IMG/VR virus record: IMGVR_UViG_3300033067_001742
Location: 1 to 38,687 of that record
DNA: 38,687 nt
Reading direction: 5' to 3' (one strand)
DNA from: a virus
Lineage: Duplodnaviria; Caudoviricetes
Shown here: in pieces, positions 22,516 through 27,490 of the stretch
Numbering within the stretch: the stretch's first letter is position 1
Layout of the letters: every line of letters starts with the position of its first letter
Notes under the pieces: generated by a model
What the model saw: the letters and a program-made list of their open reading frames with translations, nothing else
What the model was told of the DNA's origin: nothing
Database searches by the model: none
Position numbers and translations under genes: made by a program

Positions 22516-23763
22516 ATGGCAGCACGGAAAACGCCGCGGAAGACTTTGATCGAAGCCGAGCGCGCGATGGAACGGTACGGCACGGAGTCGGCCGCGGCCC
22601 GCGCGCTCGGCATCCCGCGCCCGACGCTGCACAACCGCCTGGAGGCGGCCCGGCTCGACGGCGTGAAGCCGACCGAGAAGGCCGAAGAGGGCCCGCAGCG
22701 CACCGAGCTGGACCTCGCGCGCGACCGCATCCTCGAACTGGACGCGCAACTGAAGGGCGTGAAGTCGGAGACGCTGACGGACGCCTACGTGAAGCGGAAG
22801 ATCATCGGCCTGCGCGAGGACGCCGACCAGGTCAAGCCGCCGGGCTGGTCGCTCACCATCCCCCGCGGGAAGGGCCTCCCGGGCGTGCCGGTCACGCTCT
22901 GGTCCGACTGGCATTGGGGCGAGGTCGTCGACCCGGAGCAGATCAACGGGGTGAACGAGTACAGCCTCGCCATCGCGCACCGCCGCGCGCGGACGCTGGT
23001 GTCGCGGATCGTCGAGCTGCTGTTCTCCTACGCGCCCGGCGGGAAGGCTTCTTACCCCGGGATCGTGGTGTGCCTCGGCGGCGATATGGTGTCGGGAGAC
23101 ATCCACGAGGAGCTGTCGGAGACGAACGAAGTGCCGGCGATGCCGTGCATCCTCGACCTGTACGCGGTCCTGATCTGGGGCCTGCAGACGCTGGCCGATA
23201 GGTTCGGGAAGGTGTTCGTGCCGTGCGTGACCGGGAACCACGGCCGGATGACGAAGAAGCCGCGCGCAAAGGGGCGGGCGTTCACCAACTTCGATTGGCT
23301 GCTGTACAGGTTGCTCCAGAAGCACTTCGAGGGCGACAAGCGGATCCAGTTTTTCATCCCGGACGGCCCGGACGCGCTGTTCACCGTGGTCGGCCACAGG
23401 TATCTGTTGACGCATGGCGACCAGTTCCGCGGGGGTGACGGGATGATCGGCCCGATCGGCCCGCTGACCCGTGGCCGGCAAAAGAAGCTCTCGAGGAACG
23501 CCGCGGTCGGGCGCGAGTTCGACACGATGATCCACGGCCATTACCACACGTACTCGCCGACCCCGCGCCTCATCGGCAACGGCAGCCTGAAGGGGTACGA
23601 CGAGTACGCGAACGCGAACAACTTCGGCTTCGAGCTTCCGATTCAGGCGCTGTGGCTGACGCACCCCGAGCACGGGATCACGATCCACATGCCGACGTTC
23701 CTCGAGAAGGCGACCACCGCGAACGCCGGCGCCGACTGGATCGGGTGGAAGGATGCAGCCTGA
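22516..23763 (+). CDS. Calcineurin-like metallophosphoesterase with N-terminal HTH and coiled coil
   Basis: All five motifs present: 'SDWHWG', 'GGDMVSG', 'GNHG', 'THGD', 'GHYH'. N-terminal 'ESAAARALGIPRPTLHNRL' is a Fis-type HTH. Confidence 0.85.
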   Translation: MAARKTPRKTLIEAERAMERYGTESAAARALGIPRPTLHNRLEAARLDGVKPTEKAEEGPQRTELDLARDRILELDAQLKGVKSETLTDAYVKRKIIGLREDADQVKPPGWSLTIPRGKGLPGVPVTLWSDWHWGEVVDPEQINGVNEYSLAIAHRRARTLVSRIVELLFSYAPGGKASYPGIVVCLGGDMVSGDIHEELSETNEVPAMPCILDLYAVLIWGLQTLADRFGKVFVPCVTGNHGRMTKKPRAKGRAFTNFDWLLYRLLQKHFEGDKRIQFFIPDGPDALFTVVGHRYLLTHGDQFRGGDGMIGPIGPLTRGRQKKLSRNAAVGREFDTMIHGHYHTYSPTPRLIGNGSLKGYDEYANANNFGFELPIQALWLTHPEHGITIHMPTFLEKATTANAGADWIGWKDAA

Positions 23764-23851
23764 GTGTGTCTAAAATTGGGCTTTCCGGAATAACTTGTGG
23801 AACGGGTCGTGATGGTGCATAGTCTAATCTCGGATAAACGTGTGGAACCGA

Positions 23852-25003
23852 ATGGGCGCGAAAGTCATCACCGGGGACTGTCTCGACGTGTTGCCAACGC
23901 TTGCGGAATGCAGCGTGGACGCGGTTGTGACCGATCCGCCTTATCACCTGACCACCGGCAAGCGCGGCGGGACGGGCGTTGCTTCGGACAATCCGAACAG
24001 CCCCGCCGGGCGGTCTCGCATCGGAACCGGCTTCATGGGGAAGGCATGGGACGGTGGGGATGTAGCGTTCCGTCCCGAGACGTGGGCGCAGATCATGCGC
24101 GTTGCCAAGCCGGGCGCGCACCTCGTCGCGTTTGGAGGCACCCGCACGCATCACCGCCTGATGGTTGCCATCGAGGATGCGGGATGGGAGATCCGCGATG
24201 CGCTTGGATGGTTGTTCGGGTCCGGCTTTCCCAAGAGCCACAACGGCCCGTGGGGAGGAACGGCGCTCAAACCGGCATGGGAGCCCATCATCCTCGCGCG
24301 GAAGCCTCTGGCGGGCACCGTAGAGGCCACGGTCGCCAAGTTCGGTACGGGAGCCCTGAACATCGACGACTCCCGGATCGGCGTTGGGGCCGACGTTGGG
24401 CGCTGGCCGGCGAACATCCTGCACGACGGGAGCGACGAGGTGCTGTCGGTATTCCCGGAGTCCGACGGCCAACTGTGCGACATCAGCACGGACCCCACGT
24501 CGCGGCGCAACCAAAACGTCTACGGCAACCTGCGGCGCGGCCGCGACGGCGAGCCGAGCGCGGAGAGGCGCTATACAGAGGAGGGTGGGACCAACTTCGC
24601 GGCACTTCCCGGCGCTCGACGCGGCGACAGCGGGAGCGCCGCGCGCTTCTTCTACTGCGCGAAGGCCGACCGGACCGACCGCAACGCCGGTACGGAGCAG
24701 ATGCCCAAGCGCCCGCTCAACTGGTCGAGCGGCGCCCAGTCTCCGGGAACCTTCCAGTCGGAGAACACAGACCGGAGCGCGAGCAACCATCACCCGACCG
24801 TCAAACCCACCGAGCTGATGCGGTACTTGTGCCGCCTCATCGCCCCGGCCGGCGGGCTAATCCTCGATCCGTTTGCGGGCAGCGGATCGACTGGCAAGGC
24901 GGCGCTGTTGGAGGGATTCGACTTCCTCGGGATCGAGCTGGACCCGGAGTACGCGGCCATCGCACAGGCACGGATTTACGCTACCGCGCCGCTGTTCGCG
25001 TAG
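23852..25003 (+). CDS. DNA amino-methyltransferase (N6-A/N4-C, beta class)
   Basis: Catalytic 'VTDPPY' near the N-terminus; 'HPTVKP' and SAM-binding 'LDPFAGSGSTG' near the C-terminus. Alternative GTG start at 23840. Confidence 0.93.
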   Translation: MGAKVITGDCLDVLPTLAECSVDAVVTDPPYHLTTGKRGGTGVASDNPNSPAGRSRIGTGFMGKAWDGGDVAFRPETWAQIMRVAKPGAHLVAFGGTRTHHRLMVAIEDAGWEIRDALGWLFGSGFPKSHNGPWGGTALKPAWEPIILARKPLAGTVEATVAKFGTGALNIDDSRIGVGADVGRWPANILHDGSDEVLSVFPESDGQLCDISTDPTSRRNQNVYGNLRRGRDGEPSAERRYTEEGGTNFAALPGARRGDSGSAARFFYCAKADRTDRNAGTEQMPKRPLNWSSGAQSPGTFQSENTDRSASNHHPTVKPTELMRYLCRLIAPAGGLILDPFAGSGSTGKAALLEGFDFLGIELDPEYAAIAQARIYATAPLFA

Positions 25004-26359
25004 ATGACCGACATCCTCGACCTTCCGGACTGGACGCTGATCGACAAGCGTTCCGACGGGGACGAGTACGAGCTGGAGGCCGAATACCGGCTCCTGCCCG
25101 GTGCCTGCGTCAAGTGCGGCTCGGTCGGGCGGCTGTACAAGCACGGCACCAAGGACACGACCTTCCGCGACAGCCCTATCCGGGGCCATCCGGTGCGGCT
25201 CCTGGCGCGCGTACAGCGCTTCCGGTGCCGGGACTGCGGGGAGACGTTCTTGCAGCCTCTGGGAGCCATCCAAGAGGCCATGCGCATGACTGAGCGCTGC
25301 GCCGAGTACGTCAAGGACCAGTGCCTGCGCGACACCTTCGCCCGGATCGCGGAGCACGTCGGCTGCGACGAGAAAACCATCCGGACGCTGGCGTCGGAGC
25401 ACATCCTCGCCGTGGAGGCGAATTACCGGCCCGAACTGCCAAGGCAGCTTGGCATGGATGAGACGAAGATCGACGGGCGGCAGCGCTGCGTCATCACGGA
25501 CATCGGCAGGAAGCGCCCCATCGAACTGCTGGCCGACCGGGACAAGGTGACGGTCGCCGGCTGGCTGGCGCGCTTCCCGGACCGCAGCGGGGTCGAGGTG
25601 GTCGCCATCGACATGTGGCGTCCGTACCTCGACGTTGCCCACGTCCTGTTCCCCGGCGTGCCGGTGGTCGTGGACAAGTTCCACGTCGTCCGGATGGCGA
25701 ACGAGGCTCTGGACCGGGTGCGCATCCGGATGGGCAAGAAGCAGGCGAAGCTCGTCCGCCGGGGCTGGATGCAGTCCAAGTCCCTGCTGGTGCAGCGCAA
25801 CGCCAACCTGAGCGAGAAGCGCCGCTTCAACCTCGACATGTGGCTGGCGAACGAGCCGGACATCGCGGCGGCCTACTGGTGCAAGGAAGCGTTCTTCGGG
25901 CTGTACGACCTGCCGAAGGCCGATGCCGTGGCGGCGTTCGATGCGTGGCCGGCGACCGTGCCGCAGCACCTGAAGGCGGACTTCCGGAAGCTGCTGACGG
26001 CGGCGCGCAACTGGCGCACCGAGATCCTCGCGTACTTCGATCACCCCGTCACCAACGCCTACACCGAGGCGCTGAACGGAGTGGCGAAGGTCATCAACCG
26101 GCAGGGGCGCGGCTACACCTTCGAGGTGCTGCGCGCCCGTGTCCTGTTCGGAAAGGGGGTGGCAACCGTGAAACCGATACCCGAGTTGCGGTGCGAGTCG
26201 TGCGGTGGACTGTTCCCCAAGCCGACGATGCAGGTGGACCACATCAGGCCGCTGTTCAAAGGCGAGCGCGGCGGCGGAACCATCATGGTCTGCCGGACCT
26301 GCAATGCACGTTTCCACACGAAGCCTCATGGTCCCTCGTCAGCAGCTTCTACACGTTAA
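25004..26359 (+). CDS. ISL3-family transposase with C-terminal HNH-like domain
   Basis: Zinc finger 'CVKCG..RFRCRDCG'; DDE motifs 'LGMDET', 'VAIDMWRPY', 'VDKFHVV', 'TNAYTEALN'; then 'CESC..VDHIRP..GG..CRTCNARFH'. Confidence 0.92.
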   Translation: MTDILDLPDWTLIDKRSDGDEYELEAEYRLLPGACVKCGSVGRLYKHGTKDTTFRDSPIRGHPVRLLARVQRFRCRDCGETFLQPLGAIQEAMRMTERCAEYVKDQCLRDTFARIAEHVGCDEKTIRTLASEHILAVEANYRPELPRQLGMDETKIDGRQRCVITDIGRKRPIELLADRDKVTVAGWLARFPDRSGVEVVAIDMWRPYLDVAHVLFPGVPVVVDKFHVVRMANEALDRVRIRMGKKQAKLVRRGWMQSKSLLVQRNANLSEKRRFNLDMWLANEPDIAAAYWCKEAFFGLYDLPKADAVAAFDAWPATVPQHLKADFRKLLTAARNWRTEILAYFDHPVTNAYTEALNGVAKVINRQGRGYTFEVLRARVLFGKGVATVKPIPELRCESCGGLFPKPTMQVDHIRPLFKGERGGGTIMVCRTCNARFHTKPHGPSSAASTR

Positions 26360-26469
26360 TCCGGAGTGCCTAAAATTGTGCCCAACCGGGCCGGATTCCG
26401 GCTGTTTTAGGCTGTTTTGGGCGGGGTTCGCCTCTGCGGCGTCATAGTGCGGCGCCCGCGTCCCGGGCT

Positions 26470-26507
26470 TTAGGAGGGGGCTGCTCTATCCACTGAGCTA
26501 CCGGGGC
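26470..26507 (-). other. attP: attP core: 5' half of tRNA-Arg(CCT)
   Basis: Minus strand reads GCCCCGG-TA-GCTC-AGTGGATA-GAGC-A-GCCCC-CTCCTAA (acceptor strand, D arm, anticodon loop with CCT). tRNA similarity stops after the loop. Overlaps the integrase stop codon. Confidence 0.85.
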
Positions 26508-27490
26508 GAAGGGCGCTTTTTGCGGGGTTGTGTGTCTAAAATTGTGCCCACGTTCCCCGCGTACTGGGCCACGTGCGACGGGGCCAGGTGCGCGTAGCGC
26601 GAGAGCATAGCAGGGGAGGCCCACGCCCCGAGCCGCTGCAGCACCTCCATCGGGGTGCCGGCCATCGCGTGCCAGCTCGCCCACGAGTGCCGGGTGGCGC
26701 GGTGCCAGGTAATGTGGGGCAGACCCGCCCGCTTCTTGGCGGCGTTGAACGCCGTTTTCGGGCTGCCGATCGGGCCGCCCTTGTACGTGAAGACAAAGAC
26801 GGCGTCCTCGCCGGCGACCTGGTCGAGCACGGCCATCGCGGCGTCATTCAGCGGGATCGGGACGGCCTTCCGACCTTTCAGCAGGCGCGCCGGCAGCATG
26901 ACCTGCCGCCGGGCGAGGTCGACGTGTGACCACTCCAGGAGGGCCACATTGTCCCAGCGCAGGCCGGTGGCACCGGCGAACCGGAACATCGCTTGCTGGT
27001 GCGGCGGCAGCTCATTGTGCAGCGACCACCAGTCGTCGGGGGTCAGGTAGGTATCGTCGGGCTCGGGCTCGGCCCGGCGCTCAAACTTCGGGGCCGCCTC
27101 AATCCACCCCTTGCGCGCCGCGATGTTCAAGGCCGCCCGGATGATGACCATGTGCCGATTGTAGGCGCCTGGCCCGCGATCCTTGCCGAGCTCGGCCTCG
27201 ACCGATGCCGGCGTCACGTCTATCAGGGGCCGGTCGGGGTATTCCCTGCGGATCAAGGCCACGGCGTTCAGGTCCTTGCGCGAGCGTGGCCGCTCGTCGA
27301 GCCAGGCCAGCAGAGCATCGGCTAGGACGTACCCGCTGACCTTCTCCGTCCAGAGGCGGGCTTTGAGCTCGTCGTGCTGCCGCTGCGCCGTGGCCCGGTC
27401 GCTTGTTTCAGTCGAGCGTCTAAGGCGTCGGCCGCGGTGCCGTAGAGAGATCCACCAGAACGGGCTGCCGGGGCGCTTGTAGAGCGGCAT
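26498..27490 (-). CDS. int: Tyrosine integrase
   Basis: 'ATGLRWDN' (R), 'WHRATRHSWASW' (HxxxR), 'LGAW', 'RYAHL' (Y); N-terminal arm-binding 'LYKRPGSPFWWI..RRST.T'. Confidence 0.95.
   Translation of the reverse strand: MPLYKRPGSPFWWISLRHRGRRLRRSTETSDRATAQRQHDELKARLWTEKVSGYVLADALLAWLDERPRSRKDLNAVALIRREYPDRPLIDVTPASVEAELGKDRGPGAYNRHMVIIRAALNIAARKGWIEAAPKFERRAEPEPDDTYLTPDDWWSLHNELPPHQQAMFRFAGATGLRWDNVALLEWSHVDLARRQVMLPARLLKGRKAVPIPLNDAAMAVLDQVAGEDAVFVFTYKGGPIGSPKTAFNAAKKRAGLPHITWHRATRHSWASWHAMAGTPMEVLQRLGAWASPAMLSRYAHLAPSHVAQYAGNVGTILDTQPRKKRPSPR
26530..26550 (+). repeat. Putative integrase arm-type binding repeat GTGTGTCTAAAATTGTGCCCA
   Basis: An identical 21-mer is rebuilt on the other side of the core when the IS and one target-duplication copy are removed (23764-23778 + 26379-26384). 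It consists of two TGTGYCYA units. Confidence 0.7.

Follow-up and report, generated by a model that had tools for sequence, protein, structure and literature searches.

A temperate phage carrying an ISRso21-like ISL3 transposon with a methyltransferase passenger and an HNH-derived transposase tail

The viral contig IMGVR_UViG_3300033067_001742 (38,687 bp; "the window" denotes this whole contig) contains an ISL3 insertion sequence (IS) that carries a DNA methyltransferase gene and a transposase gene, the product of which continues beyond its core into a zinc-binding C-terminal tail. An original prediction had read this tail as an HNH domain and had proposed that it works together with the methyltransferase as a restriction-modification (RM)-like addiction module, as a homing or retention device or in methylation-gated transposition. 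The explanation that we favour, with moderate confidence, is that the element is an ISRso21-like ISL3 transposon in a temperate phage, that the tail is an accessory DNA-binding or folding module rather than a needed nuclease, and that the methyltransferase is exchangeable cargo which would shield phage DNA from host restriction.

Profile comparisons indicated that the tail is HNH-derived, in line with the predicted zinc-binding HNH pattern. The isolated 60-residue tail scored 28.2 bits against Pfam HNH_5, above the cut-off of 27.5 (23.6 bits for the whole protein, below it), and 23.9 bits against Pfam HNH (cut-off 21.4), a family matched by 18 of 52 tails at E ≤0.05. A profile of 52 tails ranked the HNH endonuclease 4H9D first (E 1.5e-9), followed by the HNH of a group II intron maturase (E 1.8e-6), with those of Cas9, TagI and McrA lower and zinc fingers mixed in. 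The suggested check by structure modelling gave a mixed outcome: AlphaFold predicted the strand-strand-helix order for the tail (mean pLDDT 81.9), preceded by a low-confidence and probably flexible linker at residues 386–389, but structure searches were weak, with 4H9D as the top Foldseek match at E 0.06 and a VIA-align Z of 3.7, below that of FYVE fingers (Z 5.0).

In the window copy the general-base His with its preceding Asp and the Asn after the last Cys are present, as had been anticipated; D412, H413 and N434 align with Asp53, His54 and Asn77 of Gmet_0936, the protein in 4H9D and a weak Mn-dependent nickase (PMC3765158; statements citing this paper, PMC3592412, PMC6305408, PMC9587614 or PMC2853133 refer to excerpts of them). 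Two details of the predicted pattern had to be corrected. The structural Asn is replaced by Gly425, not by Thr, in alignments with 4H9D and with near relatives that keep the Asn, and the spacers are of 11 and 6 rather than 10 and 5 residues. The window tail also lacks the helix that in most relatives precedes the first CxxC.

A close donor of the tail was not found in searches for stand-alone relatives, nor was an HNH-like gene found elsewhere in the window phage. A word-indexed search for short stand-alone relatives yielded no candidate, and an exhaustive one gave 18 matches, nine of which were examined: seven derived from this transposase group, as fragments or through deletion, and two were stand-alone HNH proteins (E 3e-4 and 8e-4). 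Among longer proteins the tail profile had 30 matches, 29 of them with ISL3 Pfam domains; no fusion of the tail to other proteins was seen, a weak indication that such fusions may be lacking. In four loci (L268, L288, L009 and P0123), in-frame internal deletions bring the N-terminal region and the tail of the transposase together, giving mini-proteins of 72–129 residues; two of these deletions were joined at similar RC..C words of the two zinc fingers.

Sequence comparison indicated that the tail is a trait of the whole ISRso21-like subgroup. Among the fetched loci, which were not deduplicated, the CxxC...CxxC pattern occurred in all 109 complete transposases at ≥45% core identity to that of the window vs. 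7 of 108 below this value, in agreement with the expectation that typical ISL3 transposases have no HNH tail; it was also present in 118 of the top 120 protein matches. For the analysis of catalytic residues, 236 tailed proteins were clustered at 90% into 163 clusters, in which the Cys residues are present by construction. The full catalytic set, defined as [DH]H, N/H and a final H, was found in only 16 clusters and was missing in 147. H413 was present in 53 clusters, with D at position 412 in 10 and H in 43. The DH residues, whose loss in homologues had been named as evidence against the original prediction, are therefore largely not conserved.

The zinc fold was maintained after this loss. 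Across 19 disjoint pairs of close relatives in which the catalytic set is missing, the zinc box had a dN/dS of 0.22, compared to 0.08 for the core (simple counting method, GC-rich genes), which shows that the fold was kept once catalysis had gone and that catalytically dead tails are under purifying selection. Five of 26 close pairs combined strongly diverged tails with close cores and were set apart as swapped.

The main alternative, which we consider rather unlikely but well above the others, is that the tail is a live tethered nickase in some lineages, including that of the window, and that the methyltransferase is unrelated cargo. Such a nickase would act near the element ends or in target DNA, either by assisting the cut of the non-transferred strand or by stimulating recombination, through which passengers and tails are exchanged and the element passes from one co-infecting phage to another. 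The match of D412, H413 and N434 to the active site of Gmet_0936 is consistent with this, as are the tails that look swapped and the retention of H413 throughout the near lineage described below. The Gly at the structural Asn site need not be prohibitive, since this Asn is not strictly required: Hpy99I lacks it and is active (PMC3765158). HNH nickases are known from phages, where small HNH domains nick at sites of 3–7 bp and a domain of 76 residues suffices (PMC3592412). The alternative is opposed by the absence of the full set from most clusters, by the combination of the Gly and the missing helix in the window copy itself, and by the behaviour of related elements. At least 51 of 62 delimited elements with perfect target duplications are outside the full set (at most 11 have it), which indicates that catalysis is not needed to transpose.

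The methyltransferase was assigned to Pfam N6_N4_Mtase (PF01555, E 4.5e-27) and to phrog_67 (E 2.8e-66). Its DPPY motif lies ahead of FxGxG and both are intact, confirming the proposed beta-class amino-methyltransferase. The family is common in phages, with relatives in 710 phage records, and none of the 80 best viral relatives (out of an estimated ~790 stretches; 67 with ≥1400 nt downstream) adjoins an ISL3 transposase.

Analysis of the slot between the left end and the transposase suggested that the methyltransferase is likely exchangeable cargo. A methyltransferase was recognised in 20 of 89 distinct passenger regions, a lower bound as many passengers have no family, and at least six families were represented (N6/N4, C5, Dam, D12, phrog_954 and phrog_757). 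The other passengers included eight PAPS-reductase-like genes, four DpdA/TGT genes and one DUF5131 gene, the rest being phage-type or unknown genes. DNA-modification genes were the commonest identified cargo (33/89; the passenger of L010 was classed from record annotation and motifs). Such variation among homologues, which had been listed as a finding that would tell against a dedicated pair, is thus largely what was observed.

Exchange was directly visible among close relatives. Transposases that are 98–99% identical carry DpdA, PAPS reductase or an N6/N4 methylase (L117, L119, L195), and the two loci nearest to the window carry two different C5 methylases: L172, with 95% DNA identity in the transposase, and L009, which has an internal deletion. 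A transposase that is nearly the same, including its tail (≤16 differences in 1366 nt, 14 of them near the start), stands in runs X2 and X3 behind a different passenger, the end of which resembles the C5 methylase of L172 over the 30 bases visible. A contig of run X9, corresponding to window positions 23,819–25,001, keeps the left end and a methylase that is 95% identical (54 differences in 1183 nt) and has no transposase. This methylase is directly followed by seven bases matching the right tip of the element, likely because a deletion took out the transposase and left the cargo behind. Overlaps counted between passenger stops and transposase starts were set aside, since the ATGA start produces them artificially.

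That tail and methyltransferase form a minimal RM or addiction pair, with the methylase protecting against the tail, is in our view quite improbable. The two genes do abut and likely form one operon, and in ISRso21 an intact tail is accompanied by a methylase. The proposed test, co-occurrence of the two, turned out weak: a methylase is present in a minority of passenger slots, with a slight excess beside intact tails (p = 0.05). Six of the 11 elements with a full tail have no recognisable methylase, and 12 of the 17 methylase-bearing elements with a complete tail have no full catalytic set. Pairing is also unstable, as the different passengers behind near-identical transposases and tails show (X2, X3); swaps between m5C and amino methylases would require overlapping sites each time. 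PADLOC gave no match for the transposase or the tail. The addiction-module proposal was thus not supported.

Complete RM cargo was found in sister ISL3 groups without the tail. Four such elements carry a methylase together with a restriction enzyme (L039, L085, L225 and L232, with the pairs D12 + SacI, C5 + NotI, Eco57I-type + XamI and Eco57I-type + BsuBI/PstI), and among these only L085 has a perfect duplication. Other sister elements (L043, L046, L049, L050, L054, L243 and others) often carry HEPN/nucleotidyltransferase toxin-antitoxin, Fic, Abi or PIN genes. On plasmid CP093307.1 (L010), two methylase + ISL3 pairs are inverted around a short central segment in a composite-transposon-like arrangement, with a third transposase nearby.

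Several observations on the lineage of the window weigh against regarding the tail as an accessory module. H413 and N/H434 are kept in all 13 distinct equal-length tails of this lineage (one 39-residue tail was left out), D412 in 10 and N425 in 7, at an average tail identity of 64%; full-length cores of the lineage are 93–98% identical to that of the window. This retention is what selection for catalysis would resemble, but it is suggestive only, because 11 other tail positions, four of them Cys, are invariant as well. Only methylases were identified as passengers in the lineage, namely in the window, in L172, in L009 and probably in run X3. Across the 80 elements with a complete tail (nine incomplete ones left out), a methylase accompanied the full catalytic tail in 5 of 11 cases vs. 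12 of 69 for the others (Fisher p = 0.050). The intact tails are scattered on a FastTree tree of 78 rows, from which two rows with broken or short transposases were dropped, with 11 changes; independent pairs pointed in the same direction 3.5 times and in the opposite one 0.2 times, at a median p of 0.25, in an underpowered comparison. Any DNA-modification cargo, tested against tail state, was not enriched (p = 0.50). An active nickase in the window lineage is accordingly possible, and a loose tie to methylation likewise.

A combined scenario can be drawn from these points, to which we assign a small chance. In a phage-associated ISL3 subgroup, the transposase-tethered HNH nickase would still be active in lineages such as that of the window, with recognition residues that diversify fast and are swapped as a module; it would nick unmethylated DNA, thereby favouring methylase carriers and driving cargo exchange. 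If true, nature would have joined a DDE transposase to a nickase, with a loose link to the modification of phage DNA. A tail that turned out to be active as a tethered nickase would be a compact natural transposase-nickase fusion of mechanistic and engineering interest.

Analysis of the element ends provided a different explanation for part of the apparent tail conservation. Each end has two repeat copies (offsets 17–18 and 62–63 on the left, 17–18 and 52–53 on the right), and the second copy is kept on the left in 53 and on the right in 60 of the 62 delimited elements. R-F-H-T in the tail is the translation of the inner right copy. The F-H codons were TTC-CAC in all 38 loci, compared to 23.2 expected from each gene's own usage, and the Thr codon was ACG or ACA in 37; the codons of a control word, DKFH, were mixed (53/63 and 50/63). 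The motif is also retained at offset 53 in 8 of the 13 cassettes without a transposase, and two more have it with one base changed; in these cassettes it falls in a different reading frame or within an unrelated gene. The conserved F-H-T is, on this comparative evidence, a DNA signal of the element end. H438 had been considered as a conserved third metal ligand and was rejected as evidence of nuclease function, since its codon is set by the inner end repeat.

The cassettes belong to 17 distinct short non-autonomous elements among L252–L309 (viral contigs; 361–1134 bp, duplication 7–8 of 8), of which 13 have no transposase remnant; their cargo consists of phage genes, for example an N6/N4 methylase in L289 and a Gp37/Gp68-like gene in L287. 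Sister ISL3 transposases end in G.DISTL, the IST of which appears to be the same end repeat in another frame. A promoter scan found no site at the position of the conserved TATAnT box in the window, where the match is weak.

Methylation-gated transposition, in which the passenger would methylate a site in the end repeats and so tune transposase binding, is very unlikely. The end repeats contain CG dinucleotides and DNA modification is frequent among the cargo, but the ends are conserved while the passengers span at least six methylase families and many non-methylases.

Least likely of all, if by little, is protein-guided homing or retention, in which the tail cuts the empty allele and the filled allele is copied in. 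Free-standing HNH homing nucleases do occur in phages. The target duplications of the 62 delimited elements are all different, with an AT bias of 72% and no flanking consensus, which argues against a fixed insertion site and site-specific homing, and a domain of ~45 residues with no visible recognition module could not read so many empty sites; the proposal was not upheld. The nearest parallel for a DDD/E transposon carrying a His-Me finger nuclease is the eukaryotic KolobokP group, in which the nuclease is encoded by a separate gene on the opposite strand, is of the His-Cys box type and has conserved catalytic residues; these transposons also differ in having long terminal direct repeats and animal hosts (PMC9587614).

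The element itself was delimited directly (Table 1). It is intact, spans positions 23,779–26,370 (2592 bp) and contains two open reading frames, those of the methyltransferase and the abutting transposase. The 8-bp target duplication TAAAATTG is AT-rich and identical in both copies (8/8), and the empty allele was present in a contig of run X5 that joins position 23,769 to 26,370 with identical flanks. The same two flank pieces, again identical, were found in one contig of run X4, from the same study as X5; the same phage therefore exists without the element. The complete stretch was present in run X1, from which the window may come. This bore out the original description of a clean IS with two genes only. 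The 24-bp terminal inverted repeats are present as described but imperfect; they start with GG, in the same form as in ISPst2.

Table 1. Features of the ISL3 element, with positions in the window.
Feature	Position	Strand	Basis
Target duplication, left copy	23771..23778	.	Repeat comparison; empty allele in X4, X5
Left terminal inverted repeat, holding the first copy of the 17-bp end repeat	23779..23802	+	19/24 match to right
Position of conserved TATAnT box, putative -10, between the left-end repeats	23818..23823	+	Consensus of 77 left ends
Second left-end repeat, likely transposase-binding site; the passenger slot opens directly after it	23831..23847	+	Kept in 53/62 delimited elements
Beta-class N6-adenine/N4-cytosine DNA methyltransferase, 383 aa, phage orphan type, passenger	23852..25003	+	PF01555, phrog_67
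ISL3 transposase, 451 aa, ISRso21-like: zinc ribbon, helix-turn-helix, DDE core	25004..26359	+	Pfam, NF033550, relatives
HNH-derived zinc finger: C397, C400, D412, H413, G425 (Asn position), C430, C433, N434	26192..26317	+	
Inner right-end repeat of the terminal motif, encoding tail R-F-H-T	26309..26320	-	
Right terminal inverted repeat, overlapping the last transposase codons	26347..26370	-	19/24 match to left
Target duplication, right copy	26371..26378	.	Repeat comparison

The transposase matched DDE_Tnp_ISL3 (PF01610, E 3e-55) and PF14690 (E 2e-10), with PF13542 below the cut-off, and scored 293.9 bits with NCBIfam NF033550 (cut-off 180); the DDE residues D152, D224 and E355 are invariant. 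With this transposase type, ends of ~24 bp starting with GG and an 8-bp AT-rich duplication accompanied by an empty allele, the element belongs to the ISL3 family. A fold search with the full-length protein brought up ISCth4 (IS256 family) and integrases, but nothing on the tail. Homologues of the transposase numbered 1112 among the candidates scored. Two further viral scans for the near lineage of the window gave no new members, and a megablast search against plasmids no match. As a hint of phage association, 68 of 77 viral loci reached ≥43% identity, whereas among the 80 top genome loci 18 reached ≥49%, in searches with differing patterns.

The window is a single contig with terminase, portal, capsid, tail, endolysin, integrase and primase genes, a set that identifies it as a temperate phage. 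On one side of the element is a phrog_284 gene (22,516–23,763) and on the other the integrase gene (26,498–27,490, minus strand), which places the element at a likely phage attachment region. Next to the integrase gene, the 5' half of a tRNA-Arg(CCT)-like sequence was found on the minus strand at 26,470–26,506, from where other contigs run on into tRNA-like 3' halves; ARAGORN and Rfam detected no tRNA or RNA family. Cores of this kind are more often 3' than 5' halves of a tRNA. Two 19-bp direct repeats (26,366–26,384 and 26,532–26,550) flank this half; the IS was inserted into one of them, and its right end restores that repeat at 18/19.

Among known systems, the closest is ISRso21, named from the annotation of record CP052119.1 (Ralstonia solanacearum megaplasmid). 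Its transposase is 56% identical over all 451 residues, with the same end repeats, an abutting methyltransferase and a tail with the four Cys and H, in which the catalytic pair is H-H. ISRso21 differs in its 165-aa phrog_954 methylase, in place of phrog_67, its size of 2032 bp and its megaplasmid location. The layout of a methylase with an ISL3 transposase is already present in ISRso21, the annotation of which does not mention an HNH tail; no paper on it was found in the literature search. The putative IS of Burkholderia phage Bcep22 (AY349011.3, gp32–gp34) resembles that of the window in its transposase (54% identical), zinc tail, annotated 24-bp ends and phage host, and differs in carrying two hypothetical passengers, no methylase and a tail without the catalytic D/H-H.

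Passenger-carrying ISL3 elements are known: ISPst2 and others share the 24-bp repeats starting with GG, the 8-bp AT-rich duplication and passengers inside the ends, but the passengers of ISPst2 are ArsR and a permease, and an HNH tail is not mentioned in the excerpts (PMC6305408). Gmet_0936 (PMC3765158) and phage HNH endonucleases (PMC3592412) share the CxxC pair and the D-H...C-N active-site layout with the tail. These nickases are stand-alone and have the structural Asn, whereas the window tail is fused to a DDE transposase, has Gly for Asn and belongs to a group in which ~90% of relatives have lost the catalytic residues. In transposon-like RM units, too, inverted repeats with an 8-bp duplication enclose methylase genes, some of them orphans; these units carry a true restriction enzyme gene as cargo, whereas any nuclease in the window element would be the transposase tail (PMC2853133). 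In the literature searched, to which ISfinder/TnPedia, subscription journals and supplements with possible IS tables did not belong, no account of ISL3 transposases ending in an HNH tail was found; the word "transposase" is absent from PMC5714182, and Rso21, HNH and methyltransferase are absent from PMC7371123.

In the favoured explanation, an ancestor of the subgroup would have captured an HNH gene in frame at the 3' end of the transposase gene. The zinc fold would have been retained as an accessory module while the active site decayed in most lines. The DDE core would mobilise the element by binding two repeats per end, the inner right repeat fixing the F-H-T codons, and a promoter between the two left repeats would drive passenger and transposase and be repressed by bound transposase. 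The slot behind this promoter may pick up phage genes, and passengers would be replaced by recombination between elements and phage DNA; DNA-modification genes would often be kept because they protect the carrier phage.

The striking RM-like reading was thus mostly explained away, and the lasting point is a captured, partly decayed HNH domain. It defines a large ISL3 subgroup and is not named in the annotations examined. The apparently conserved histidine dictated by element-end DNA calls for caution in reading catalytic residues from such tails. The domain is visible at several stages, from catalytic-looking to purely zinc-binding, and near-identical transposases with and without His413 are natural pairs in which the role of an accessory nuclease fold in a DDE transposase can be tested. 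DNA-modification genes are carried between phages by these elements and by the cassettes without a transposase, a plausible route for the spread of anti-restriction traits.

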